Notes under the pieces: model-generated
Seen by the model: only the letters and a program-made list of their open reading frames with translations
Told to the model about the DNA's origin: nothing
The model's database searches: none
Shown: in pieces, positions 52,768-63,817 of the stretch
Position numbering within the stretch: the stretch's first letter is position 1
Layout: the number at the start of each line of letters is the position of its first letter
Made by a program: the position numbers and the translations under genes
DNA from: an uncultured bacterium
GTDB taxonomy: Bacteria; Babelota; Babeliae; Babelales; Vermiphilaceae
Assembly (NCBI GenBank): GCA_963702025.1
Contig: OY969699.1
Coordinates: 256,001 to 320,000, forward strand
Direction: 5' to 3'
DNA length: 64,000 bases

Positions 52768-54297
52768 ATGTTCTGCCCCGATGAACAAACAATCATTGCA
52801 CAATGTACGCCCCGCGCAAGCGGGGCAATTGCCTTACTGCGTATCAGTGGAAATGGAGCAATTCCGATCGCTGATGCGATAAGTTCTTTGGCTTCTGGCA
52901 AGAAACTTGCTCAATCGCCATCCCATACCATTCATTATGGTTCGGTCAAGAAAATGACTCCAATAACCAATCACGATCCTTCGATACGCGCCTATGGCGC
53001 TACTCAGGACGAACGGAGGAATGAATCCGTTCGTGGTGAGTGTCTCGCGAAGCGAGATGTATCGAACCATTCCCAAGAAGCTGCAACTATTGATAATGTC
53101 CTTTTTCTCCTCATGCGAGCACCCAAAACATTCACCGGGCAAGATACGGTGGAAATTACCTGCCACAACAACCAATTTATTATCGAAGAGATTATTGCGC
53201 TTGCCATCGGCGCCGGCGCGCGCCTGGCGCAAGAAGGTGAGTTCACCAAACGCGCGGTCCTGAGTGGCAAAATTGATCTGATACAAGCGGAAGCAATTAA
53301 TGAATTGATTCACGCTCAAACACAATTGGCACTCAAGCAATCGCTTGCCCAACTTGATGGGAGCTTTTCACAGTGGTTGCAAATGCTGGAAAAAGATTTA
53401 CTCAAAGCGCTCGCATTATCTGAAGCAAGTTTTGAATTTCTTGATGAAGAGATGGAATTTGCGCCGCAAATCAGCACTTTGATAGAAACCACACAAAACA
53501 ATATTGGTATCATTAAAAAAACATTTAATCAGCAACAAACGATTCGCCAAGGAATCCGTGTTGCCATAATCGGCTCGGTGAATGCCGGCAAATCATCCTT
53601 ATTTAATGCGTTGCTCAATCAAAATAGAGCGATTGTAAATGCACAGGCAGGCACCACAAGAGATTCTATTGAGGCAGGTCTTTATAAAAATGGCAATTTT
53701 TGGACCTTGGTGGACACCGCCGGATTGCGCCAAACGGATGATACCATTGAACAAGAGGGCATTAAACGTTCTTTTGAAGAAGCTCACAAAGCAGACATTA
53801 TCATTCTTGCATATGATGGTTCGCGAGAAATAAGTGCGCAAGAAAAGACGGTTTATGATGGCATTGTGGAAAAATATCCGAATAAAATTATTACGGTATT
53901 TACCAAGGTGGATCAGGTACAATCCAAGGAACCGTTCGTGGTGAGTGCGAATGAAATTCGCGTATCGAACCATGCAGTTGAAAATCCCATCTTTCTCTCA
54001 AGCAAAACCAAAACAAACATAGACCTTCTTGAAAAACAGATCGAACAAAAAATAACCGGCTTATTTGCTCAAATCGAATCACCGTTTTTACTTAATCAGC
54101 GTCATTACAATATCTTACTGACACTTGAAAATAAACTGCACGAAATTCAACAGATGCTCGCATGCAAAAAAGTTGCCTATGAATTACTTTCCGTGCATAT
54201 TAATGATGCCATTGCTAATCTTGCAGAACTTTCGGGTAAATCTATCAGCGAGGCAGGAATGGACATGGTGTTTAGAGAATTCTGTATTGGAAAATGA
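52768..54297 (+). CDS. mnmE: tRNA modification GTPase MnmE with two in-frame repeat insertions
   Basis: GEFTKRA, DLIQAEA, GSVNAGKSS, GTTRD, DTAG and FCIGK. Confidence 0.98.
   Translation: MFCPDEQTIIAQCTPRASGAIALLRISGNGAIPIADAISSLASGKKLAQSPSHTIHYGSVKKMTPITNHDPSIRAYGATQDERRNESVRGECLAKRDVSNHSQEAATIDNVLFLLMRAPKTFTGQDTVEITCHNNQFIIEEIIALAIGAGARLAQEGEFTKRAVLSGKIDLIQAEAINELIHAQTQLALKQSLAQLDGSFSQWLQMLEKDLLKALALSEASFEFLDEEMEFAPQISTLIETTQNNIGIIKKTFNQQQTIRQGIRVAIIGSVNAGKSSLFNALLNQNRAIVNAQAGTTRDSIEAGLYKNGNFWTLVDTAGLRQTDDTIEQEGIKRSFEEAHKADIIILAYDGSREISAQEKTVYDGIVEKYPNKIITVFTKVDQVQSKEPFVVSANEIRVSNHAVENPIFLSSKTKTNIDLLEKQIEQKITGLFAQIESPFLLNQRHYNILLTLENKLHEIQQMLACKKVAYELLSVHINDAIANLAELSGKSISEAGMDMVFREFCIGK
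52975..53070. repeat. Inverted REP doublet (REPIN-like) inside mnmE
   Basis: ccttcgatac-gcgcctatggcgc-tactcaggacgaacgg ... ccgttcgtggtgagtg-tctcgcgaagcgaga-tgtatcgaaccat. Confidence 0.88.
53932..53974 (+). repeat. Single REP-like element inside mnmE
   Basis: ccgttcgtggtgagt-gcgaatgaaattcgc-gtatcgaaccatg; encodes PFVVSANEIRVSNH. Confidence 0.88.
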
Positions 54298-54372
54298 GAC
54301 TACTTAAATATAGACGCAGAGGCGTAAAGCCATTAATACAATAAGATAATCTGCTTCATTACTATATCTCAT

Positions 54373-55341
54373 TTATGCATGAGCCGCTTGTGCTTGTGGC
54401 GCATATTTATTATAAGAAGCCACAATCTTATCAACTTTCTTTTGACCGGCGACGATTGCCAATTGCTGCGCAGCCGTTTGGCATGCAACAGGAATTCCCG
54501 ATGCTGTTTTTGCAGCAGAAGAAGCATTTTTTATTAAAGCATGCTTAAATTCCATCTCTTTTTGTACTTTTTCTGTCTCTGCTTTAAATTTAGCGGCTTT
54601 CAATTTTTCTTTTAGATCATTTGCCTTTTGAGCCTCGGTCGGGAAAAAGTATCGATAAATCTCACGGCCTTTATAATACACTATAACACCCACAACCACT
54701 CCTCCCACAACAATGCAGGTTGCAACCGGATGTGCTACCGCAACAGCGGCAACGGTTGATCCGGCAGATTTTATTGCAGCGCCGGTGGTTTTTATGGCAG
54801 CCCCTACGGTATTTAATGCGCCGACACCAACATTTGCGCCTGCATTTGGCGCAGCCTTAGCAAGAGCGATACATGCTTGCTTAATCTCTCCCGATGATTT
54901 TTCAATAACCGGAGCAAGAACTTTGGCTGCTTCAATGCCACCATTTGCCAGAGCCGGCTCAGCAGTTTTTAATGCTTCAGCAAATTTTTCAAGGGCCGGG
55001 ACAGTTTTTGCGGTGATAAAAATACCTGTTTTAGATAGTGTATTCACTGTTTGATTAACAACCGGAATCGCGGTTTTAACAGTTTGTAATCCAACCTCAG
55101 AGCCGGCTGCAGGAAGCGTTGCTAGCAATTCTTTAAGATGTGGCGATAACTCTTTAACGGCTTCAATACCTAATTCTTTAGCAGCTTCATTCATTTTTTG
55201 CGAAGCATCTCGGAGTGCAGGTGCCATAATTTTTGCAGCATTTAAGCCTATATCACATCCCATTCCATTGTCCGCTAAAATGCAATGGAACAATTGGAAA
55301 AGAAAAAGTTGATAAAATACCATCTTTTTTATGTTGTTCAT
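54373..55341 (-). CDS. Secreted Ala-rich amphipathic-repeat protein with a long hydrophobic segment
   Basis: Signal peptide; GIEAVKELSP and GIEAAKVLAP repeats; VAAVAVAHPVATCIVVGGVVVGVIVYY. Confidence 0.7.
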   Translation of the reverse strand: MNNIKKMVFYQLFLFQLFHCILADNGMGCDIGLNAAKIMAPALRDASQKMNEAAKELGIEAVKELSPHLKELLATLPAAGSEVGLQTVKTAIPVVNQTVNTLSKTGIFITAKTVPALEKFAEALKTAEPALANGGIEAAKVLAPVIEKSSGEIKQACIALAKAAPNAGANVGVGALNTVGAAIKTTGAAIKSAGSTVAAVAVAHPVATCIVVGGVVVGVIVYYKGREIYRYFFPTEAQKANDLKEKLKAAKFKAETEKVQKEMEFKHALIKNASSAAKTASGIPVACQTAAQQLAIVAGQKKVDKIVASYNKYAPQAQAAHA

Positions 55342-55363
55342 AATCTTTTACCTTTTTTAATTT

Positions 55364-55864
55364 CTACTGATTAAAAGCGATCAATTTTTGATTAATTTCA
55401 CGACGTTCTTGCTCAAGAACTTCATATCTTTGGATTAAAGTCTTTATAAGTCGATACTCATTAACAATTATTAGAAGAAAAAACTTTATTGCGTCAAAAT
55501 TTTCTTCTATTTGGTCATTTTCAGATTTTCGGAAAAGTTCTTTAATCAAAAAATTATTAACATTTTTTTCATTATTTAAAGTTCTGATAAATGCGACAAG
55601 ATTTTCGTCTACCGCGCGACCGAACTCGCCTCTTTCTTGCTCGTTAAGGTTCTTTTTTTCTAGTTCTGCTCTCAAAATATTGATAGCTTCTTTCCAAGTC
55701 GAACGCGTATACAAATACCTTTCAGCAATTGTCTTGCCCAATTCGGAAAGTTCCATTTCTTTTTTAAATTTAAGCTCTGCTAATTGTGCTTGTGCGTCTG
55801 TTTCATTACCCAAAAGAGTAAGCGGCATTAAAAGAACGGCTAGTAATATATTTTTGTAAGTCAT
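55364..55864 (-). CDS. Secreted helical protein (cassette 1, gene 3)
   Basis: MTYKNILLAVLLMPLTLLGN; paralog of 58631-59140. Confidence 0.8.
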   Translation of the reverse strand: MTYKNILLAVLLMPLTLLGNETDAQAQLAELKFKKEMELSELGKTIAERYLYTRSTWKEAINILRAELEKKNLNEQERGEFGRAVDENLVAFIRTLNNEKNVNNFLIKELFRKSENDQIEENFDAIKFFLLIIVNEYRLIKTLIQRYEVLEQERREINQKLIAFNQ

Positions 55865-55946
55865 AAAAATTCCTTAAAATAATTGAAAAATTTATTCACA
55901 ATGGGGCATAATCCCGAAAATAGTTTTTAATCTTGTCTCAATAAAT

Positions 55947-55969
55947 CCCCCCATGGAAGAACCATGGGG
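55947..55969 (-). terminator. Hairpin after the cassette 1 membrane gene (equivalent at about 59229-59251)
   Basis: ccccatgg-aagaa-ccatgggg, conserved in both cassettes. Confidence 0.6.
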
Positions 55970-56010
55970 AGGCCAATGTTAATCTTTGGAATAATGTATC
56001 TCACGCATCG

Positions 56011-56355
56011 CTAATCCGATTCAGCCCGTTTATACTTATAATGATAGACACACCAAATCAACGTTATGCTAAATGCAATTCGGATAATCGGCGCCATATA
56101 AGGGCTAATCTGATACAATGGTTGCCACAGTCCATAGCGTGGAATTTGATAATACCATGCCAGCCATGGGCATCCTATGAACCATACAATAATCATATAG
56201 GTCAAGAAGAAGGGATTTCTGAACGGAGAATTTTCATCGATAATTCTATACCATCGCTCTCGTTCTCCTCCAATTATCATGCTCAAAAGCACTATAACTG
56301 CACCATATAACGTATTTTCAAGTTGGATTAGGCAGGAGTACCAAAATGTAATCAT
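56011..56355 (-). CDS. Small three-TM membrane protein, putative immunity (cassette 1, gene 2)
   Basis: Three hydrophobic segments; starts 9 nt after gene 1; distant paralog of 59258-59593 (Y.IV.WF...W..WY.Q.PR.G.W). Confidence 0.65.
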   Translation of the reverse strand: MITFWYSCLIQLENTLYGAVIVLLSMIIGGERERWYRIIDENSPFRNPFFLTYMIIVWFIGCPWLAWYYQIPRYGLWQPLYQISPYMAPIIRIAFSITLIWCVYHYKYKRAESD

Positions 56356-56364
56356 ATGTTCTCT

Positions 56365-56856
56365 TTATGGAGTCGGCAAGAGAGTTCCAGCAACCTCCAC
56401 GGTCAATGCTGATGCTTCAATAGCCTCATGAACAAGATGCGCTTCTGCAAGAACTTCTGGATGAAAAATGGCCGCAACTGCATAGCCGCCATAACCCACT
56501 GCACGTACTGTCCATCCGGCAATTTTTCCTGTAATCCAACCGCCGCCATTGCCACGAACCTTTGCCACAAGAGCATATTTCCCTTCTTCAAATTTATTGA
56601 TGCGGATATACCCGTTACCAACAAATTCATTCAAGACTTTATGTTGCGAAACATCTCTGAGCAATGGATTAATATTATGCTTTTCAACAAAATGTTTTCC
56701 ATTCTCATCTTCGACGTAGAAATCTCTCTGATTTGAATACAGCTTAAGATCATTTGCCGATGATACAGCGCTCTGCTCTACCAATTCCATTGCATGAACT
56801 AATGATGAAATACTGAATAAAAATAATGATAAAGAAGTGATGTTACGTATCTTCAC
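56365..56856 (-). CDS. Secreted precursor: conserved pro-domain, GNGGG, variable hydrophobic peptide (cassette 1, gene 1)
   Basis: GTG start; first ~107 aa nearly identical to 59596-60090, then diverged. Confidence 0.8.
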   Translation of the reverse strand: MKIRNITSLSLFLFSISSLVHAMELVEQSAVSSANDLKLYSNQRDFYVEDENGKHFVEKHNINPLLRDVSQHKVLNEFVGNGYIRINKFEEGKYALVAKVRGNGGGWITGKIAGWTVRAVGYGGYAVAAIFHPEVLAEAHLVHEAIEASALTVEVAGTLLPTP

Positions 56857-56942
56857 GTATTCTTCCTAGCGTTATGTTGTTAATAAATATATACACTGGC
56901 TTGTTCGACATCGCTGCAGCTGAAACCGAAACGCATTACTAC
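56857..56942 (-). repeat. Leader sequence identical to 60091-60176
   Basis: gtattcttcctagcgttatg...gctgcagctgaaaccgaaacgcattactac present in both cassettes. Confidence 0.9.
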
Positions 56943-56996
56943 TATGGGTCGGGCAATATAATAGAACAATTTTTTTCAAATGAAAAGCATTATTTT

Positions 56997-58226
56997 CTGA
57001 AGTTCGGACATAAATAGAAGAGACTCCTGTTCTGGTGTATTTTTAAAAAAAACAAAGAAACACCAAAAACAGGAGAATCATGATTGCCAAAAAAGATATC
57101 ATAAAAATGATTAATTCGCTAAAAGTATTTAACATTCATGTTGCCGACTTCATCGGATCGATGATTTGGGGGTTCCAACAAGCAAAAAAGCTTAGAATTT
57201 CCAGCATTTCTGCTGCATCACCCGGCAAGTATGAATCTAACTATAAAAACATCACAAGATCTCTAAATAAATTAGAAGTTTCTCAGCTTTCAGAAGCTCT
57301 TTTGTCATTTCAGGACCAAGCGAGTGATATCCTATTGCTCGATTTTACTGAGATGACTCGAAAAAATGCTAAACGCACTGCTTATATTGGATATTTAAAA
57401 GATGGAGAAACACTTGGCTACAGCATATTGGCACTGAGTGTACCATTCAAAGGAAGATCTAAAATAATATTTGCTGATGTAATATCTTCTTCAATCATTG
57501 CTGAGAGCGCAACTGGAAAGTGGAAGCTTATTCAAGAAGCTTTACGCCCATTAATTCCTTTGCTTCAGAGTAAGATAATTGTCATTGATCGTGAACTTTG
57601 CAATGAGGAGATGATCAAGTTCTTTCATAAACATCAAATTCATTATTCAATACGCTTAAAAATAAGTGCTGGAAAAAACCAAATTATTATTACTGACAAA
57701 AAAGGCAGCAGGATTAACATTTCTATTACTCGCGGCTCAAAGAAAAATTGGAAAGGGGTTTATTATAAAGGGAAAATCAAAGTAAATATTGCTGCTGAAT
57801 GGCAAAGCAATATGCCTGAGCCAATGTATATAATTACAGATTGTCAGCCAAGTGAAGGTTTAAAATACTATAAAAAACGCATGAAAATAGAGGAAAGTTT
57901 CAAAGATATAAAAGATAAATTGGGCTTTACAAAAATCATGAATAAAACTTTAGGCAATCTCCTTAAAATGCTCCTCATTGGATTAATTGCCTACAATCTA
58001 TTGATTTTGATAGGCGAAATGCTGCGATTACAAGTGCTCACGAAGCGCGAAAGGCTTAAGTTCAGCGGTTTGCATTTATTGCTTAATATGATTTATTCAT
58101 ATTCTCGATCCAAACTTCGGAAAGCACTACGTCAAGTTGAATTCCATCTGCTTGAAAATAATTCAGATGATGTTGTTTGGTTAAGAGCCTTTAGGAATTG
58201 TTAAAATGAAATTGTCCGAACTTAAG
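56997..58226 (+). mobile_element. IS4-superfamily insertion sequence, about 1230 bp, apparently intact
   Basis: Terminal inverted repeats CTGAAGTTCGGACA and TGTCCGAACTTAAG; flanking direct repeat TTATTTT (56990-56996, 58227-58233). Confidence 0.88.
57080..58204 (+). CDS. DDE transposase (IS4 superfamily)
   Basis: LLLDFT, IVIDREL and YKKRMKIEESFKDIK (YREK motif). Confidence 0.93.
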   Translation: MIAKKDIIKMINSLKVFNIHVADFIGSMIWGFQQAKKLRISSISAASPGKYESNYKNITRSLNKLEVSQLSEALLSFQDQASDILLLDFTEMTRKNAKRTAYIGYLKDGETLGYSILALSVPFKGRSKIIFADVISSSIIAESATGKWKLIQEALRPLIPLLQSKIIVIDRELCNEEMIKFFHKHQIHYSIRLKISAGKNQIIITDKKGSRINISITRGSKKNWKGVYYKGKIKVNIAAEWQSNMPEPMYIITDCQPSEGLKYYKKRMKIEESFKDIKDKLGFTKIMNKTLGNLLKMLLIGLIAYNLLILIGEMLRLQVLTKRERLKFSGLHLLLNMIYSYSRSKLRKALRQVEFHLLENNSDDVVWLRAFRNC

Positions 58227-58382
58227 TTATTTTTCACCGCAAGGCCAATAGATTAAGCAGGAGGAAATCAAAGAACTTGATAAAGCCCTATTAGTTATGT
58301 TTTATTTGTTCAGCGATTGGCATATAAAAGAAGAAGCGATATAGTTATTTAGAATATTAGTTATGAATTATCAGGATTTCAG

Positions 58383-58628
58383 ATGTCATCTAGATTGCCG
58401 CTCGATTTAAGTACTTTTTCTTTATTGCGCAAATCGGGCTATCTCTATGTGGATAAAACCGAATATGCATACAATCTTATCACGCAGGGACGCAGATACT
58501 TTCTTTCTCGCCCCCGTAGATTTGGCAAATCATTGTTCGTTTCGACGTTGAAAGAAATCTTACATGGCAATAAATCATTATTTAATGGTTTTGGATCGGG
58601 AAAAGTGACTATGAATGGCATTCTCAAA
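58383..58628 (+). pseudogene. Truncated AAA-ATPase-like (PD-(D/E)XK-associated family) gene
   Basis: YLYVDKT and FLSRPRRFGKSL; frameshift near 58590 into WIGKSDYEW; ends against cassette 2. Confidence 0.85.
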
Positions 58629-58630
58629 TT

Positions 58631-59140
58631 TTATGCATGTGAAGAGCCTCCGTTGTTTTGTTTTTTTAGATTTTCAATTTTTTGATCTATCGCTACCATT
58701 TCAGACAAAATTTGTTCATATTCTTCAAACATATTTTTCCAAATAATTCGCTCAATTATGATCCTCATTTGGGCTGATTTTATTTTGCCAAGCCCAAAAT
58801 CATTCTTTTTATTCTCAAAGAGTTCTTGCTTAAGAAAGTTATTAAAAGTTCTTTCGCCTTTAAAAATTTGATTTAATCGATTTAAAAATACATCTATCTC
58901 ATCATTAAATACTTTTTTTTCATCCTCATTCAAAGTTGAAAGTATATCTTGCCAGATGACAGATGCTTTATAAATCATATCTTCAATCAATTCTTCTTGC
59001 CGAGCGATTTTCTTGCCATACTCAGAAGCTTTTAGAATTTGCTCTTTTAAATCGTTTGTTAGTTGGGCTATTTGCTCGCTGTTACCCAAAAGAGAAAGTG
59101 GCATTAAAAGAATAGCCAATAATAGATTTTTGTAAGTCAT
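58631..59140 (-). CDS. Secreted helical protein (cassette 2, gene 3)
   Basis: MTYKNLLLAILLMPLSLLGN; SEYGKKIA and NNFLKQELF shared with 55364-55864. Confidence 0.8.
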   Translation of the reverse strand: MTYKNLLLAILLMPLSLLGNSEQIAQLTNDLKEQILKASEYGKKIARQEELIEDMIYKASVIWQDILSTLNEDEKKVFNDEIDVFLNRLNQIFKGERTFNNFLKQELFENKKNDFGLGKIKSAQMRIIIERIIWKNMFEEYEQILSEMVAIDQKIENLKKQNNGGSSHA

Positions 59141-59257
59141 CGAAAATATCCTTAAAATAATTGAAAGTTTTATTCAAAATGCGGCATAAGCTCTGAAAAT
59201 AGTTTTTTTTAGTCTTGTCTCAATTTATCCCCCATGTAAGAACCATGGGGGCATATA

Positions 59258-59593
59258 TTAATCTTTGGAATAATAATATCTATCCATTACAATCATAATG
59301 ACATTTGATATGATCACTACTCCTAATGCAGCCCATCCAAGTATTGGATTATGTCCAAAAAGTAAACTCCAGATGCCCCATCGAGGCTTTTGAATATACC
59401 AAGTGAGCCAGGTAAAAAAACCAAACCACATAACAATTAAGTATGCTAAGAAATACCCGTTACAAAAGTAATCAGGAAATAGTTCTGCGATTTTTGTTTT
59501 ATCACCAATTATGATATGACGAAAGCATAACAGCGTTATACCAATTAATAGGATCTCAACTTGTCCAAGAAAGGCTTGCAAAATGGTGACCAT
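59258..59593 (-). CDS. Small three-TM membrane protein, putative immunity (cassette 2, gene 2)
   Basis: Three hydrophobic segments; starts 2 nt after the gene 1 stop. Confidence 0.65.
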   Translation of the reverse strand: MVTILQAFLGQVEILLIGITLLCFRHIIIGDKTKIAELFPDYFCNGYFLAYLIVMWFGFFTWLTWYIQKPRWGIWSLLFGHNPILGWAALGVVIISNVIMIVMDRYYYSKD

Positions 59594-59595
59594 AA

Positions 59596-60090
59596 TTATG
59601 GTAATGGGGAAAGGGTTGCAGCAAGTCCCAGTGTATTTGCTGCCGCTTCAATGCCATGCATATATTCAGCCGAGTGCATTAGCATTTCGCCATGACTTGC
59701 CCATACTAATGCCGCAAAGGTACCCCATCCTGCAAGTCGCGTCCCCCACAATGCACACGCGCCAGCAACTGGGCCACCGCCATTGCCACGAACCTTTGCC
59801 ACAAGAGCATACTTGCCATCTTTAAATTTATTGATGCGGATATACCCGTTACCAATAAATTTTTCCAAGGCTTTATGTTGCGCGACAGCTTTGAGTAATG
59901 GATTAATATTATGCTTTTCGACAAAATGTTTTCCATTCTCATCTTCAACATAGAAATCTCTGTGGTTTGTATACAGTTTAAGATCATTTGCCGATGATAC
60001 AGCACTCCGATCTACCAGCTCCATTGCGTGGACTAATGATAAGGTACTGAATAAAAATAATGATAAAGAAGTGATGTTACGTATCTTCAC
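59596..60090 (-). CDS. Secreted precursor: conserved pro-domain, GNGGG, variable hydrophobic peptide (cassette 2, gene 1)
   Basis: Paralog of 56365-56856 with a different C-terminal ~57 aa. Confidence 0.8.
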   Translation of the reverse strand: MKIRNITSLSLFLFSTLSLVHAMELVDRSAVSSANDLKLYTNHRDFYVEDENGKHFVEKHNINPLLKAVAQHKALEKFIGNGYIRINKFKDGKYALVAKVRGNGGGPVAGACALWGTRLAGWGTFAALVWASHGEMLMHSAEYMHGIEAAANTLGLAATLSPLP

Positions 60091-60464
60091 GTATTCTTCC
60101 TAGCGTTATGTTGTTAATAAATATATACACTGGCTTGTTCGACATCGCTGCAGCTGAAACCGAAACGCATTACTACAACCCTTTGTTCGTAGCTCAATCT
60201 TTTCTTGGAACCGAGTAGAAAAGAGCGAAGCAGAATGGGTCGGCGAATATCATAGACAAATATTTTTCAAAAGAAAAGCAATTTTTTGCTGTATCTTCCG
60301 GATAAAGCAGGAAAAAATCAAAAAACATTATTATTTATGCTTTATTTGTTCAGCGATTACCGTTACAAAAGACTGAAAGATAGAACTTATTTAAAGAAAT
60401 TTAGTAAATATCATTGTTTCATGTATACTTTAAACTAATTTTTTATTGAAAGTATAGGTGTTTT

Positions 60465-61175
60465 ATGAAAAAATTGTTGTTTCTTTTACTGGTATCTTCT
60501 TCTAACGTATTTTCCATGGAAAACTTAAAAAGTGAAGATGAATTTAACAATATTTTTTGTGCTCTGAATAGCAATCTGAAACCAAAAGTGGTCGCACGCT
60601 TGGCGACTAGTATCGAAAAAGATTCAGAAGCTAAAAAGGATATCAGTCAGTTGTATGATCTTAAAAACGCTCTTTATGCACTTACTGAAAGCGATGATTA
60701 TATTAGTGCCACAAAAAAAGTTTTAGAATCACTTGAATTACAACCCAACCTAAGTGCGTTGAATGGATTGATCCATCTAGCTGCAGATAATTTTGCAGTA
60801 GAAACAGTAAAAGCTCTTCTTAAATATGGTATACCTGCTGATGAATATGAATATATAAAAGTGCCCGGAGCAGAGTATAAAAAAACACCGCTTTATAAAA
60901 GTTGCACGATTCCCTACAGAATTGATGACACAGGTTTAATACCTAAAAGGATTGCTATTGTACAAGCTTTATTGGAAAATAAAGCTGATGCTAATGCATT
61001 AAATGGCGCTGATCAGGTAGGGTATAGCACTCAAACTGCGTTGTTCCGCTTGCTTGTAACAGAATGTCGGCTCAATCCACAGATTCTTGCCCATCGAAAA
61101 TCTATTATCGATCTTTTAGTAAAGGCAGGTCTTGATATTGAAATAAGAAACTCAATAAACCAAAACTGCTGTTGA
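60465..61175 (+). CDS. Secreted ankyrin-repeat protein, probably frameshifted near its 3' end
   Basis: LIHLAA, TPLYKSC and TALFRL; ankyrin TAVEYA continues in another frame after about 61162. Confidence 0.75.
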   Translation: MKKLLFLLLVSSSNVFSMENLKSEDEFNNIFCALNSNLKPKVVARLATSIEKDSEAKKDISQLYDLKNALYALTESDDYISATKKVLESLELQPNLSALNGLIHLAADNFAVETVKALLKYGIPADEYEYIKVPGAEYKKTPLYKSCTIPYRIDDTGLIPKRIAIVQALLENKADANALNGADQVGYSTQTALFRLLVTECRLNPQILAHRKSIIDLLVKAGLDIEIRNSINQNCC

Positions 61176-61329
61176 GTATGCATATGCTAAATCTTCCATT
61201 AAAGATCAATGTGCCAAGATTTGGTGAATCACGTACTACAACGCGCCAATGAAAGATCCAATAATTAAACCTTTTTTTATTGCATCTTAATGCTCTTTCT
61301 ATTTACCTTAAGTTAAAAAAAGGAAAAAT

Positions 61330-61980
61330 ATGAAATATAAAGCATTTTTATCCCTGATAGTTGCCACTTCACATGCCATGGAAATTAATGATCCATGGAT
61401 CCTCCATAAAACAGTTAAAAAGTTTGATATAGAAAAAGTGAATGAGTTACTTGCGGCAAAAAAAGTCTCCGTTAATGCAACAAACAGTAATCGTGAAACG
61501 CCGCTCCATGTAATCTGTTCCGTTGAATGTGATGCGGTGGTGCCCGAAATTGGGGAAAAACGGGTGGCAATCTGCAAAAATCTTATTGCCAATGGCGCGG
61601 AAGTAAACAGTGTTGATCGGCATGGTGAAACACCATTTTTTAATGTTTTTTGTTATGGACCAAAGATTATTAATCCTCGTGAGCAGAATGGTGGCCATGA
61701 AGAGGAAGTTCTTACTTGCTTTCTTGAACAACGAAAAGAAATCATATCACTGTTAGTTGTAAACCAATGTAATACCGAACACACAAACAGCACTGGCCTC
61801 ACTGCCTTTTATAAGGCGTGTCAAAAAAATGATGCCTTCTTAAAAAAATTGATCGCCTATGCAAAGAGCATGGAGTTAAAGGGCATTGAGAAAATAGATG
61901 ATCCCAGACAACCGCTATTCGGATTAGGAGCTCTTCAATCAGATGGTAACATTTGTTACGAATTTTGCTCAATATCATAA
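61330..61980 (+). CDS. Secreted ankyrin-repeat protein with C-terminal CaaX-like motif
   Basis: ETPLHVIC and GAEVNSVDRHGETP; ends CSIS*. Confidence 0.88.
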   Translation: MKYKAFLSLIVATSHAMEINDPWILHKTVKKFDIEKVNELLAAKKVSVNATNSNRETPLHVICSVECDAVVPEIGEKRVAICKNLIANGAEVNSVDRHGETPFFNVFCYGPKIINPREQNGGHEEEVLTCFLEQRKEIISLLVVNQCNTEHTNSTGLTAFYKACQKNDAFLKKLIAYAKSMELKGIEKIDDPRQPLFGLGALQSDGNICYEFCSIS

Positions 61981-62096
61981 CAATTTTTATCAGCGCTTTG
62001 GTGCCGGCATTAAACGGTGGTCGCAATGGACAAAAACGGCCAAAAGTTCTACCTTTGTACTCACATTTTTAATTATACCAAAAAAAGGTGAACAGC

Positions 62097-62984
62097 ATGA
62101 AAAAGACTCTCTTAACCATCGTGGCATTTTCTGTACAAAATTCCGATACGATGACAAAAGATATTTCAACGTACATGAAAAATGGAGAAAAAATTGATCA
62201 TCTCTTTTCTCCCGGCGATCTTGATAATCCTCTCTTTAAATTTGCCGCGGGCGATGAGTATCTTCCAATAACCACAAAAATATTGGATTATGGCGTTAGC
62301 GTTGAAGGGTATAGCGGACATTCGCCGCTCCATGTTGCCGTTGATAAAGGTGCTTTGCTAACCGTTACGAAACTTCTTGCGCACAACATTGATCCCAATA
62401 CAAGGAGCGATAAATTGCAGGCTACCCCGATCGAACTTGCGTGCCAAGTATTAAACCGTCCAACAAGTAACTATGGGGAACCCGCACCATTCCGTACAAC
62501 TTGCTTTGAAAAAACTTTGAGAAATATAGAAATTATTCGAGCGCTTCTCGATAAAAAAGCCAACCCGAAATCAATGTTATTTTTTCTGATGACGCATTGG
62601 CTAGCTCTACCAAAGTTTACCGGTCCCCAGCAAGAGACTTTGATTTTCATAAATAAAGAAATAATTGGCAGTGCATTCAAAAATGGTCTTAATATTTGGC
62701 TCAAAAATAATGAAAATAAAACAGCATTGGAAAATGCTGCAGGCCAACATGGCGCCAACCCAAGCCAAATCTCTTTAGTAAATTATGTATACGAACTTGA
62801 ACGCCAAAAAGTCTTAAAAGTTGTGCGGTACACAGTAAACGGCCCAAAGGCACGTTCACCATTTAAGCTCTTGCCAAAAGAGATATGCGAAATGATTATT
62901 AAGCTTGCATATCCGGTAATCGTCTTACCATCTGATGAGATTCATGAAATTAATGCGCAAACATTTCTTCATGGATTAGCTTAA
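62097..62984 (+). CDS. Secreted ankyrin-repeat protein with C-terminal F-box-like motif
   Basis: SPLHVAV, TPIELAC and KTALENA; PFKLLPKEICEMIIKL. Confidence 0.85.
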   Translation: MKKTLLTIVAFSVQNSDTMTKDISTYMKNGEKIDHLFSPGDLDNPLFKFAAGDEYLPITTKILDYGVSVEGYSGHSPLHVAVDKGALLTVTKLLAHNIDPNTRSDKLQATPIELACQVLNRPTSNYGEPAPFRTTCFEKTLRNIEIIRALLDKKANPKSMLFFLMTHWLALPKFTGPQQETLIFINKEIIGSAFKNGLNIWLKNNENKTALENAAGQHGANPSQISLVNYVYELERQKVLKVVRYTVNGPKARSPFKLLPKEICEMIIKLAYPVIVLPSDEIHEINAQTFLHGLA

Positions 62985-63025
62985 ATGATGTAAAAAAATT
63001 TCATTCAGATAGAGGAAAAACATTT

Positions 63026-63817
63026 ATGAAAACAAAATATCTTGCAATGCTTTTGCTATTTATTCCCTCATTAAATTTTTGCATGGAAGATGAGGGCTTT
63101 TTCTACCTTATGGAATCTGAATCGGAGGCCAAAGATAGAAAAGAACAACTCATAAATATCATCAATGAACGGCTAGAAAAAAACCTGGATTTGAATGCGA
63201 AAATGGGGTTTCCCTTTGCGAATCAAAAGCCATTACATCGGGCAATACATCATGATCGAACTGGCCAAATAGCCCTAAAATTGCTTAGCGCCGGAGCCGA
63301 TCCAAATGTTAATAATGGCTGGGGGGAAACCCCTTTACATTGGGCATGTAGACCACGTATATCTCTTGAAAATATAAAAATACTGCTAGCATATAACGCA
63401 AACCCAAATATTTATGATACTGCAGGATTATATCTAATTCCCACATCTTATGAAACCCCTCTGCATAATTTGTGTGCAGCATCCCATAGCGCCGATAAAC
63501 AGATTGCTCTCAAACTTTTACTTGCGCACGGCGCAAATTTTTCTTTAGAAAAAAATGGGTATGGCAAAACATGCTTAGAATTATTGTCGGAGACGGATCC
63601 AAATTTGGGCCAAATAGCCAGGCGCATTTACCATCATAAAATTGCTGCCTATATTTTGTTGCTGAGAGGAAAAGAAACAAATGAGTCTTTATTCAGACGC
63701 CTGCCAAAAGATTTGCTCAAATTGATTCTGGGTAGCATTTTCCCCAATTTTCCATGGCCAGGAGAAATTTTGAATTCCGCCAAACTTCTTGCTCTTTTGA
63801 AACCGGAGCCGAAATAG
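63026..63817 (+). CDS. Secreted ankyrin-repeat protein with C-terminal F-box-like motif
   Basis: GETPLHWAC and ETPLHNLC; LFRRLPKDLLKLILGSI. Confidence 0.88.
   Translation: MKTKYLAMLLLFIPSLNFCMEDEGFFYLMESESEAKDRKEQLINIINERLEKNLDLNAKMGFPFANQKPLHRAIHHDRTGQIALKLLSAGADPNVNNGWGETPLHWACRPRISLENIKILLAYNANPNIYDTAGLYLIPTSYETPLHNLCAASHSADKQIALKLLLAHGANFSLEKNGYGKTCLELLSETDPNLGQIARRIYHHKIAAYILLLRGKETNESLFRRLPKDLLKLILGSIFPNFPWPGEILNSAKLLALLKPEPK

Follow-up and report, generated by a model that had tools for sequence, protein, structure and literature searches.

Paired cassettes with exchangeable tails and co-varying membrane partners in Dependentiae: a candidate polymorphic toxin-immunity module

The paired cassettes and the break at the GGG codons

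We analysed a stretch of 64,000 nucleotides (nt), here called the window, from an uncultured bacterium of the Vermiphilaceae (GTDB phylum Babelota; GenBank assembly GCA_963702025.1, contig OY969699.1, forward-strand positions 256,001 to 320,000), whose genome is held in one contig of 1.6 Mb and is 95% complete. The window carries two cassettes, A and B, both on the minus strand and both with the order gene 1, gene 2, stem-loop, gene 3 (Table 1). An earlier note, made from the letters of the window alone, had described this duplicated arrangement, and the map of open reading frames (ORFs) agrees with it. Gene 1 encodes a protein made of a Sec signal, a beta-rich head, a glycine hinge and a helical tail, while gene 2 encodes a small protein with three predicted transmembrane (TM) segments. 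The two cassettes appear to be paralogous copies of a gene 1/gene 2 module that is common but patchy in Dependentiae (Babeliales).

The gene 1 proteins of the two cassettes are 68% identical overall (111/164, E 3e-79), but this value averages two very different parts: the 84-amino-acid (aa) head is 85% identical and the C-terminal 57/58 aa only 36%. The earlier note had called the copies nearly identical up to the glycines, which holds for the head as a tendency but slightly overstates it, as 16 of the first 106 residues differ. The abrupt switch that the same note had placed at the GGG is plain in the DNA. Sliding identity between the cassettes is 100% over the ~95-nt leader and 85-93% over the gene 1 signal peptide and head, falls to 40-55% from the GNGGG codons on, through the tail and the whole of gene 2, and recovers to 75-85% over the stem-loop, the intergenic region and the signal peptide of gene 3, the rest of which is again at ~45%. 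The drop is sited at the GGG codons themselves (~56540 in A, ~59800 in B). Moreover, the head shows a synonymous divergence (dS) of 0.33 and a non-synonymous divergence (dN) of 0.074, whereas just past the GGG the synonymous sites are saturated (proportion of differing sites, pS, 0.82). This jump in synonymous divergence indicates that the two halves of gene 1 have different histories, beyond what unequal constraint on the protein would produce. Gene 2, which follows gene 1 after 9 nt in A and 2 nt in B, is diverged throughout, its copies being 36% identical (32/90, E 5e-15); here too the description of a tightly linked, diverged three-TM protein is borne out. Tail and partner have been exchanged as a block behind a conserved head-coding half, with the break at the GGG codons.

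Within the heads of A and B lies a patch that reads 'ENGKHF', where the third gene 1 copy of the genome and all close relatives read 'ENAAYR'. Being common to A and B alone, it points to gene conversion between the two, a process that would keep head paralogues within a genome alike. The stem-loops are conserved between the cassettes as well (2 matches against 0 expected by chance), with folding energies of -19.5 and -13 kcal/mol.

The leader is 100% identical across the cassettes, although the adjoining coding region has a dS of 0.33, and matches the leader of the third genomic copy at about 80% of its positions. No conservation of the leader was found in other genomes, and an Rfam scan of 54000-61000 returned no credible RNA family, its one match lying far below threshold and none falling on the leader. 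A shared riboswitch-like element was therefore dropped as an explanation, since the leader is not conserved outside the genome of the window; it could be a constrained promoter or regulatory RNA, or a very recent conversion tract.

Table 1. Positions of the two cassettes, their parts and adjoining elements in the window.
Feature	Position	Strand	Description
Cassette A	55364-56944	-	
Cassette B	58631-60178	-	
Gene 1 copy A	56365-56856	-	163 aa; ORF; family profile match E 8.5e-60
Gene 1A parts	residues 1-163		Sec signal 1-22; beta-rich head 23-103; GNGGG hinge 102-106; A-type helical hairpin tail 107-163
Gene 1A hinge codons	about 56539-56553	-	
Gene 1 copy B	59596-60090	-	164 aa; same signal, head and GNGGG hinge; B-type helical tail
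Gene 2 copy A	56011-56355	-	114 aa; three predicted TM segments; putative cognate partner of the A-type tail
Gene 2 copy B	59258-59593	-	111 aa; three predicted TM segments; putative cognate partner of the B-type tail
Gene 3 copy A	55364-55864	-	166 aa; signal peptide and coiled-coil-like helical protein
Gene 3 copy B	58631-59140	-	169 aa; 35% identical to copy A, E 7e-11
Gene 4	54373-55341	-	322 aa; signal peptide, Ala/Gly-rich helical region, one TM segment, charged tail
5' leader, cassette A	56857-56944	-	100% identical to the B leader
5' leader, cassette B	60091-60178	-	100% identical to the A leader
Stem-loop, cassette A	55948-55969	-	GC-rich, between gene 2 and gene 3; terminator-like, poor T-run
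Stem-loop, cassette B	59229-59250	-	Conserved counterpart of the cassette A stem-loop
Insertion sequence (IS) element	56997-58226	+	DDE transposase, 374 aa, PF01609 E 2.7e-12; upstream of cassette A; outside the system
Truncated AAA-ATPase_like remnant	58383-58685	+	PF09820 positions 2-66 of 201, E 2.3e-23; downstream edge of cassette B

The gene 1 family, its tails and its partners

Genes 1 to 4 and nine further family or neighbour proteins gave nothing above noise against Pfam, NCBIfam, PADLOC and PHROGs, and a sequence-profile search of the PDB returned 0 matches at E ≤ 1. Likewise, nine gene 1 proteins (two from the window and seven from other loci) had no match, with E values up to 1, to the Pfam glycine-zipper and bacteriocin families (Gly-zipper, Rick_17kDa_Anti, Bacteriocin_IIc). 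The source records call the members 'hypothetical protein' or leave them nameless, the best feature score in the ESM Atlas (0.77) was to an unnamed cluster, and a full-text literature search found no published description of the family and, among the papers listed, none combining Dependentiae or Babeliales with bacteriocin, pore-forming or immunity. The gene 1 family is undescribed, as the earlier note had held, and it is large. A word-indexed protein search returned only 6 close relatives and a collection scan with a narrow gene 1 alignment 2 genome loci and 3 metagenome loci; a profile search of 1.84 billion representatives gave 644 metagenome clusters (defined at 50% identity) at E ≤ 0.001, 245 at ≤ 1e-10 and 14 at ≤ 1e-30. 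The nearest named relatives are 'Candidatus Babeliales' metagenome-assembled genomes. Members occur in 15 of 41 close-relative genomes and in 84 of 261 Dependentiae genomes (61 of the 189 high-quality ones), at 1-10 copies per genome, which are frequently arranged in tandem and in some cases interrupted by in-frame stops; the genome of the window has three.

The layout is constant across the family: a Sec-type signal is followed by a head of ~75-85 aa, a G-x-G-G-G hinge and a helical tail. The GGG is the most conserved element, present at the aligned junction in 82 of 98 distinct sequences, with Pro directly after it in 61, and its residues G104-G106 are conserved at ≥ 90% in 70 aligned sequences. 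A few members, such as L016:1492-2268(-) and L020:1381-2262(-), carry two tandem heads before the hinge, which marks the head as a repeatable module. The first helix of the tail follows the consensus P-h-x-G-x-h-A-Y-W-x-T-K-x-h-C/G-Y-G, the middle is an Ala/Gly/Thr/Val-rich insert of highly variable length, and the last helix holds a conserved Glu (I/V-E-x-A-S/A) before a P-x-L/T-P C terminus. The shortest tail has 46 aa and the longest 273, the median being 98 aa (127 of 153 retrieved proteins with a parsable GGG and tail), and the A and B tails fall in the shortest class, 27 of the 127 tails being 40-60 aa long. On average a tail is 25% Ala, 15% Gly, 11% Thr and 11% Val, with <5% charged residues, and 66 of 97 family tails reach a TM-grade hydrophobic window (≥ 1.6). 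The A and B tails are less hydrophobic, with best 19-aa Kyte-Doolittle windows of 1.08 and 1.11 against a family median of 1.68; they are amphipathic, have 3-5 acidic residues and 2-3 His in helix 2, and hold one (A) and no (B) GxxxG motif. Several known C-terminal elements were considered for this region and rejected: GlyGly-CTERM/rhombosortase, PEP-CTERM and LPXTG sorting signals (a post-GGG part of 46-273 aa, with no basic tail, against a signal of ~25 aa), Flp/type IV prepilins (no G/XXXXEY-type site), T-pilins, and Chaplin-like amyloids (the tail is predicted helical with high confidence).

An AlphaFold2 model of gene 1A built on 70 sequences (mean predicted local distance difference test, pLDDT, 91; predicted template modelling score, pTM, 0.64) places strands at 38-41, 46-50 and 53-56, short helices at 64-81 and strands at 82-88 and 94-100, followed by a helical hairpin for the tail (helices 107-131 and 133-159; pLDDT 93-98 over 111-160). 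The hinge residues 101-110 reach a pLDDT of 77, against 93-98 on both sides. Foldseek found nothing in the PDB at E ≤ 0.001 for the whole model, and VIA-align returned generic helical hairpins (Z ≤ 6.8), ATP synthase c subunits included. A model of the head alone (23 sequences, pLDDT 75.8) has the order four strands, two helices, two strands; Foldseek again gave nothing at E ≤ 0.001, and VIA-align gave weak matches to the heads of PAXX, SAS-6, XRCC4 and XLF (Z 3.4-4.5, none ≥ 5), the best being PAXX (Z 4.5) and SAS-6 (Z 4.1), with root-mean-square deviations (rmsd) of 3.0-3.8 over 69-73 residues. Heads of the XRCC4/SAS-6/PAXX type are beta-sandwiches that carry a helix-turn-helix insertion and precede a long helix. 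The complex prediction for the gene 1A tail (100-163) with gene 2A scored 0.00, the partner's own fold being uncertain, and counts neither for nor against a contact of the two. Gene 2 has a conserved aromatic loop, W-x-Y-x3-P-R-x-G-x-W, which by the positive-inside rule would lie in the periplasm, the compartment that a Sec-exported tail would reach.

The A and B tails are homologous, as they share a motif and the same predicted hairpin, and an A-type tail can be 59-63% identical in proteins whose heads match that of A at only 35-62%. The tails are long-standing, conserved classes of a single domain that have been shuffled against the heads. The view of the earlier note that the copies carry different hydrophobic C-terminal peptides is therefore right as to their divergence, but the tails are not arbitrary peptides, and those of the window are not strongly hydrophobic. 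A comparison of 67 gene 1/gene 2 pairs drawn from 261 genomes (2211 pairwise comparisons) found similar heads (normalised score ≥ 0.6) with dissimilar tails (< 0.25) in 46 cases, the reverse in 6 and both high in 4; in the pair L015/L048 the scores are 0.96 for heads and 0.11 for tails, and in L017/L024 1.0 and 0.11. Such mismatches across the family make the break at the GGG a family property and no accident of the locus in the window.

A small TM ORF lies directly downstream in 70 of the 98 distinct full-length gene 1 copies, when a partner is taken as a same-strand ORF of 40-230 aa with at least one hydrophobic segment that starts between -40 and +200 nt downstream. By the same rule the background in the window genome is 250 of 1084 ORFs of 120-340 aa (23%), and with a narrower limit (up to +160 nt) the first 25 gene 1 copies had a partner in 19 cases against 140 of 702 for the background. 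The partners belong to unrelated small families, each found behind one tail class. The family of three-TM, ~110-aa proteins to which gene 2 belongs occurs only with the short A and B tails and is rare (7 of the 261 phylum genomes); homologues of gene 2A are 54-69% identical to it and unnamed. Congruently, partner similarity follows tail similarity (Mantel r 0.41; partial r 0.40 given the head, a value that 0 of 2000 permutations reach, though these permutations retain some shared descent because kin share labels) and follows head similarity much less (r 0.10). Both the variation of C termini behind the GGG and their co-variation with the downstream TM gene, which the earlier note had proposed to look for, are thus seen across the family.

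Comparison with a sister genome adds to this picture. One metagenome contig holds both orthologous loci (L027 and L029), and its housekeeping genes are 90% (trmE) and 95% (enolase) identical to those of the window genome. At the trmE locus it has a single B-type gene 1/gene 2 pair, which matches copy B at 76% in the head, 45% in the tail and 47% in the partner. In L027 this pair faces genes 4 and 3 in convergent orientation (these match gene 4 of the window at 74% and gene 3A at 68%), a layout that marks the gene 1/gene 2 pair as a mobile unit and genes 3 and 4 as separable neighbours. On the other hand, the third cassette of the window genome is more conserved between the two genomes than enolase and trmE (L003/L029: gene 1 99%, small TM ORFs 99-100%), which implies either recent transfer or unusually strong constraint.

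Orphans and decayed copies occur as well. In L031, from the same genus, a 53-codon A-type tail with neither head nor start codon immediately follows the stop of a gene unrelated to it and precedes an intact A-type partner. Locus L032 has a lone B-like partner gene, L028 carries an A-like partner in addition to the small TM ORF that belongs to the long-tailed gene 1 before it, and in L016 and L019 two or three small TM paralogues stand in a row after gene 1. In L011 gene 1 is frameshifted and the partner intact. Decayed copies with stops were found in G136 and G253, and pseudogenes also lie within tandem arrays.

Genes 3 and 4 and the surroundings of the cassettes

Genes 3 and 4 each form a small family of their own, with four and three paralogues in the window genome. 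They recur near gene 1 in the window, at the third locus and in the relatives L009, L010, L015 and L025; the third locus (L003, G000:C1:360160-363528) has the order gene 1, small TM ORFs, gene 4, gene 3, gene 4. Genes 3 and 4 are frequent neighbours and non-obligatory parts of the module. Gene 4 has a conserved Y-x-Y-F/Y-P-T-x-E motif directly past its TM segment.

The IS element sits between the upstream region of cassette A and the AAA-ATPase_like remnant. It measures 1230 bp, has terminal inverted repeats, is present in five 100% identical copies in the genome and is flanked on both sides by TTATTTT; its boundaries (56996/58226) are supported by contig ends. The identical copies and the TTATTTT flanks show that it was active recently. 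The AAA-ATPase_like remnant overlaps the 3' end of gene 3B on the opposite strand and is probably the scar of the rearrangement that brought cassette B to this place.

Beyond cassette B, four consecutive genes (60465-63817, plus strand; 236, 216, 298 and 263 aa) begin with signal-like sequences, and ankyrin repeats were confirmed in the first of them, so that the region looks like a secreted-effector island beside the cassettes. Two secretin ORFs (856 and 883 aa) lie at G000:C1:366024-371191, some 3-8 kb from the third cassette, and on the sister contig the end of a secretin gene is about 2 kb from the cassette of L029. The trmE/mnmE gene stands beside the cassette in both genomes (52768-54297, 509 aa, in the window; L027:582-2054, 490 aa); between the two, a segment is replaced after the G-domain-proximal 'HYGSV' motif. 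Five DNA sequencing runs that carry the sequence of the window, in small shares, are soil metagenomes, and their contigs are identical to it; among the runs listed, no RNA sequencing run carried it.

Possible roles of the module

Polymorphic toxins combine a constant N-terminal delivery part with a swappable C-terminal toxin, have the immunity gene directly downstream and leave orphan modules. The genetic marks of such systems are present here: a sharp junction between a conserved 5' and a variable 3' part, a downstream gene that co-varies with the tail, and an orphan truncated tail and lone partners. The exchange of tail and partner as a block, the partner arrays and the patchy multi-copy occurrence are further likenesses. 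Because the halves are conserved and exchangeable, the linked membrane gene co-varies, orphans exist and the spread is patchy and multi-copy, we consider it somewhat probable that gene 1 encodes an exported protein that perturbs membranes and gene 2 the protector specific to it, that is, that the pair is a polymorphic toxin-immunity module. Gene 1 would be exported by Sec and possibly beyond the periplasm, the genome having two secretins. Its tail would be the active part, associating with or inserting into a membrane and perturbing it, and gene 2, as a small polytopic inner-membrane protein, would recognise only the cognate tail class and guard the membrane of the producer. The target may be a rival bacterium in the same protist host, or a host membrane: the lone partners and partner arrays point to a conflict of bacterium against bacterium, while the secreted ankyrin-repeat neighbours and the Glu/His-rich helix 2 of the A and B tails leave room for a role at host membranes.

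The module differs from each of the known systems with which it was compared. Compared with established polymorphic toxins, its variable parts are homologous helical classes and not unrelated enzymatic toxins, its proteins are small (160-340 aa), and Sec is the sole recognisable export signal, with no type V, VI or VII secretion, Rhs or filamentous delivery part. Pore-forming colicins have a ~200-aa pore domain of ten helices, no Sec signal, SOS-regulated lysis genes and immunity proteins of three or four TM segments. With these gene 1 shares an N-terminal delivery part and a C-terminal helical part with a hydrophobic hairpin, and gene 2 the size and topology of a ~110-aa three-TM immunity protein; fold searches and a PDB profile search gave no fold or sequence match between gene 1 and the colicin pore domain. 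The c subunit of the F-type ATP synthase resembles the tail in its helical hairpin, Gly-rich first helix and conserved carboxylate in the second, and one such subunit (2x2v_A; Z 6.1, rmsd 3.8 over 64 residues) is among the tied best fold matches. This Z is at the level of any generic hairpin, however; the sequences are not related, and gene 1 has an additional head and an unrelated context.

The nearest analogues in function are toxins that act on membranes and are paired with a small polytopic immunity protein: the colicins, the class II bacteriocins and two further groups. The ionophore toxins of contact-dependent inhibition (CDI) systems, as described by Halvorsen et al. 2024 (PMC11630599), have a helical membrane-spanning C-terminal domain after a variable entry domain, and their CdiI immunity proteins are small, cognate-specific and about 30% identical within a group, to which the 36% identity of both tails and partners between A and B may be compared. 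CDI toxins are the tips of huge, contact-delivered CdiA proteins and are predicted five-helix bundles, whereas gene 1 is small and Sec-exported and ends in two helices or in a longer Gly/Ala-rich tail; the sequences of the two showed no similarity. The contact-dependent glycine-zipper bacteriocins of the Cdz system, as described by Garcia-Bayona et al. 2017 (PMC5380434), are likewise small, Gly/Ala-rich, hydrophobic and membrane-acting, and have a small TM immunity protein, CdzI, alongside. CdzC and CdzD are proteins of 84-86 aa with a type I secretion leader and a dedicated CdzAB exporter; the present module differs in its Sec signal, its additional folded head, the lack of exporter genes and the few GxxxG motifs of the A and B tails.

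Several observations weigh against a toxin-immunity role. No partner was detected for 28 of the 98 gene 1 copies, and the shared descent retained in the Mantel permutations tempers the co-variation. The A and B tails are only moderately hydrophobic and have acidic and His residues in helix 2, so that simple TM insertion is not assured. The tail is a single conserved domain in several classes, unlike the unrelated toxin domains of classical systems; old tail classes and a near-invariant third cassette would be expected of a structural complex too, and the conservation of that cassette also fits purifying selection on a structural function. Neither an exporter of its own nor a lysis gene nor a protease is encoded in the cassette. 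For an obligately intracellular organism, other bacteria are less obvious as competitors, and the secreted ankyrin-repeat genes around the locus would also fit a role directed at the host.

These points lend themselves to other explanations. One is a non-toxic envelope complex, in which the C-terminal helices anchor the head in the inner membrane, or dock it there, and gene 2 serves as anchor, insertase helper or co-subunit of a structural or signalling element, possibly with genes 3 and 4; the co-variation would then be the ordinary co-evolution of subunits in contact. The age and conservation of the tail classes, the third cassette being 99-100% identical between genomes whose enolases are at 95%, the exported or membrane genes 3 and 4 that recur beside the module, and the weak resemblance of the head to oligomerising heads before a long helix (those of PAXX and SAS-6) all suit such a complex, as does a cassette in which nothing suggests release from the cell. 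We nevertheless regard it as doubtful, since a patchy distribution with variable copy number, tandem arrays and pseudogenes is unusual for a core structure, and since lone partners, a truncated tail retained beside an intact partner, tails swapped behind near-identical heads and one locus with allele-like divergence between sister genomes speak against it. Another explanation, unlikely in our judgement, is a membrane effector aimed at the host: gene 1 would be released, for instance through a secretin, and insert into the membrane of a host vacuole or organelle, perhaps triggered by acid, with gene 2 protecting or chaperoning it in the producer and the variation reflecting an arms race with the protist. 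Babeliales, to which the relatives belong, are intracellular parasites of protists, and helices that insert into membranes when acidified are likewise rich in Glu and His, as helix 2 of the A and B tails is; the ankyrin-repeat neighbours and the two secretin genes, one group of them about 2.5 kb from the third cassette, agree with this idea. However, lone partners and rows of partner paralogues make most sense as a defence against tails made by other bacteria.

The explanation offered by the earlier note, that the head is a pro-domain and that a peptidase of the bacterium, or a deubiquitinase-like enzyme of the host, cleaves at Gly-Gly and so frees a membrane-active peptide of ~56 aa of the class II bacteriocin or microcin type, appears improbable. 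No element of the family is more conserved than the GGG, which falls where the model is least confident, between two well-folded parts, and coincides with the recombination break, and the Gly-Gly before a Gly-rich part with a small membrane immunity protein adjacent does recall class II bacteriocins and microcins. The leaders of these, however, are short, lack a Sec signal and are cut in the cytoplasm by an ABC exporter with a C39 peptidase, whereas gene 1 has a Sec signal and a folded domain of 84 aa, and the C39 peptidase profile (PF03412) had 0 matches in the 95%-complete genome, while 7 of 14 reference genomes used as control were matched. Moreover, the Pro that so often follows the GGG resembles a helix-start or hinge motif, the cassette has no protease gene, and the part behind the GGG is about 100-270 aa in most members, which is no peptide. 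The ubiquitin-like, beta-grasp nature suggested for the pro-domain found no support either: such a fold is absent from the top matches of four fold searches, and the order of strands and helices in the moderately confident head model differs from it, which leaves the deubiquitinase a conjecture with no structural backing. Processing by some other protease is conceivable, because the hinge is both the most conserved and the least rigid element. The earlier note was thus confirmed in what it observed and partly supported in how it interpreted it.

Taking up the toxin-immunity reading again, we tentatively propose that Dependentiae possess a class of their own: Sec-dependent polymorphic membrane toxins made of a head, a GGG(P) hinge and an exchangeable Gly/Ala-rich tail that would oligomerise as a pore or ionophore, each with a tail-specific immunity protein, and used against rival strains in the same protist cell or, in the case of the Glu/His-rich short tails, in the breach of an acidified host vacuole. 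As a whole this more specific proposal is possible but less probable than the bare pairing of toxin and protector.

The Dependentiae, parasites of protists, are a widespread phylum with hardly any cultured members, and for most of the proteins that they export no function is known. The family described here adds an unnamed group, found in 644 metagenome clusters and in about a third of the phylum genomes searched, with a clear and testable genetic logic. If its members are toxins with cognate immunity proteins, intracellular parasites would compete with one another inside host cells, and this would be the first system of inter-bacterial antagonism described for the phylum, and the toxin family would be one to which today's domain libraries contain no relative. 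It would also offer a new small membrane-active protein fold with built-in natural specificity variants, in a simple Sec-dependent delivery format unlike the large polymorphic toxins bound to secretion systems. If the role is structural instead, the family would be an unusual case in which a membrane anchor is exchanged block-wise together with its partner.

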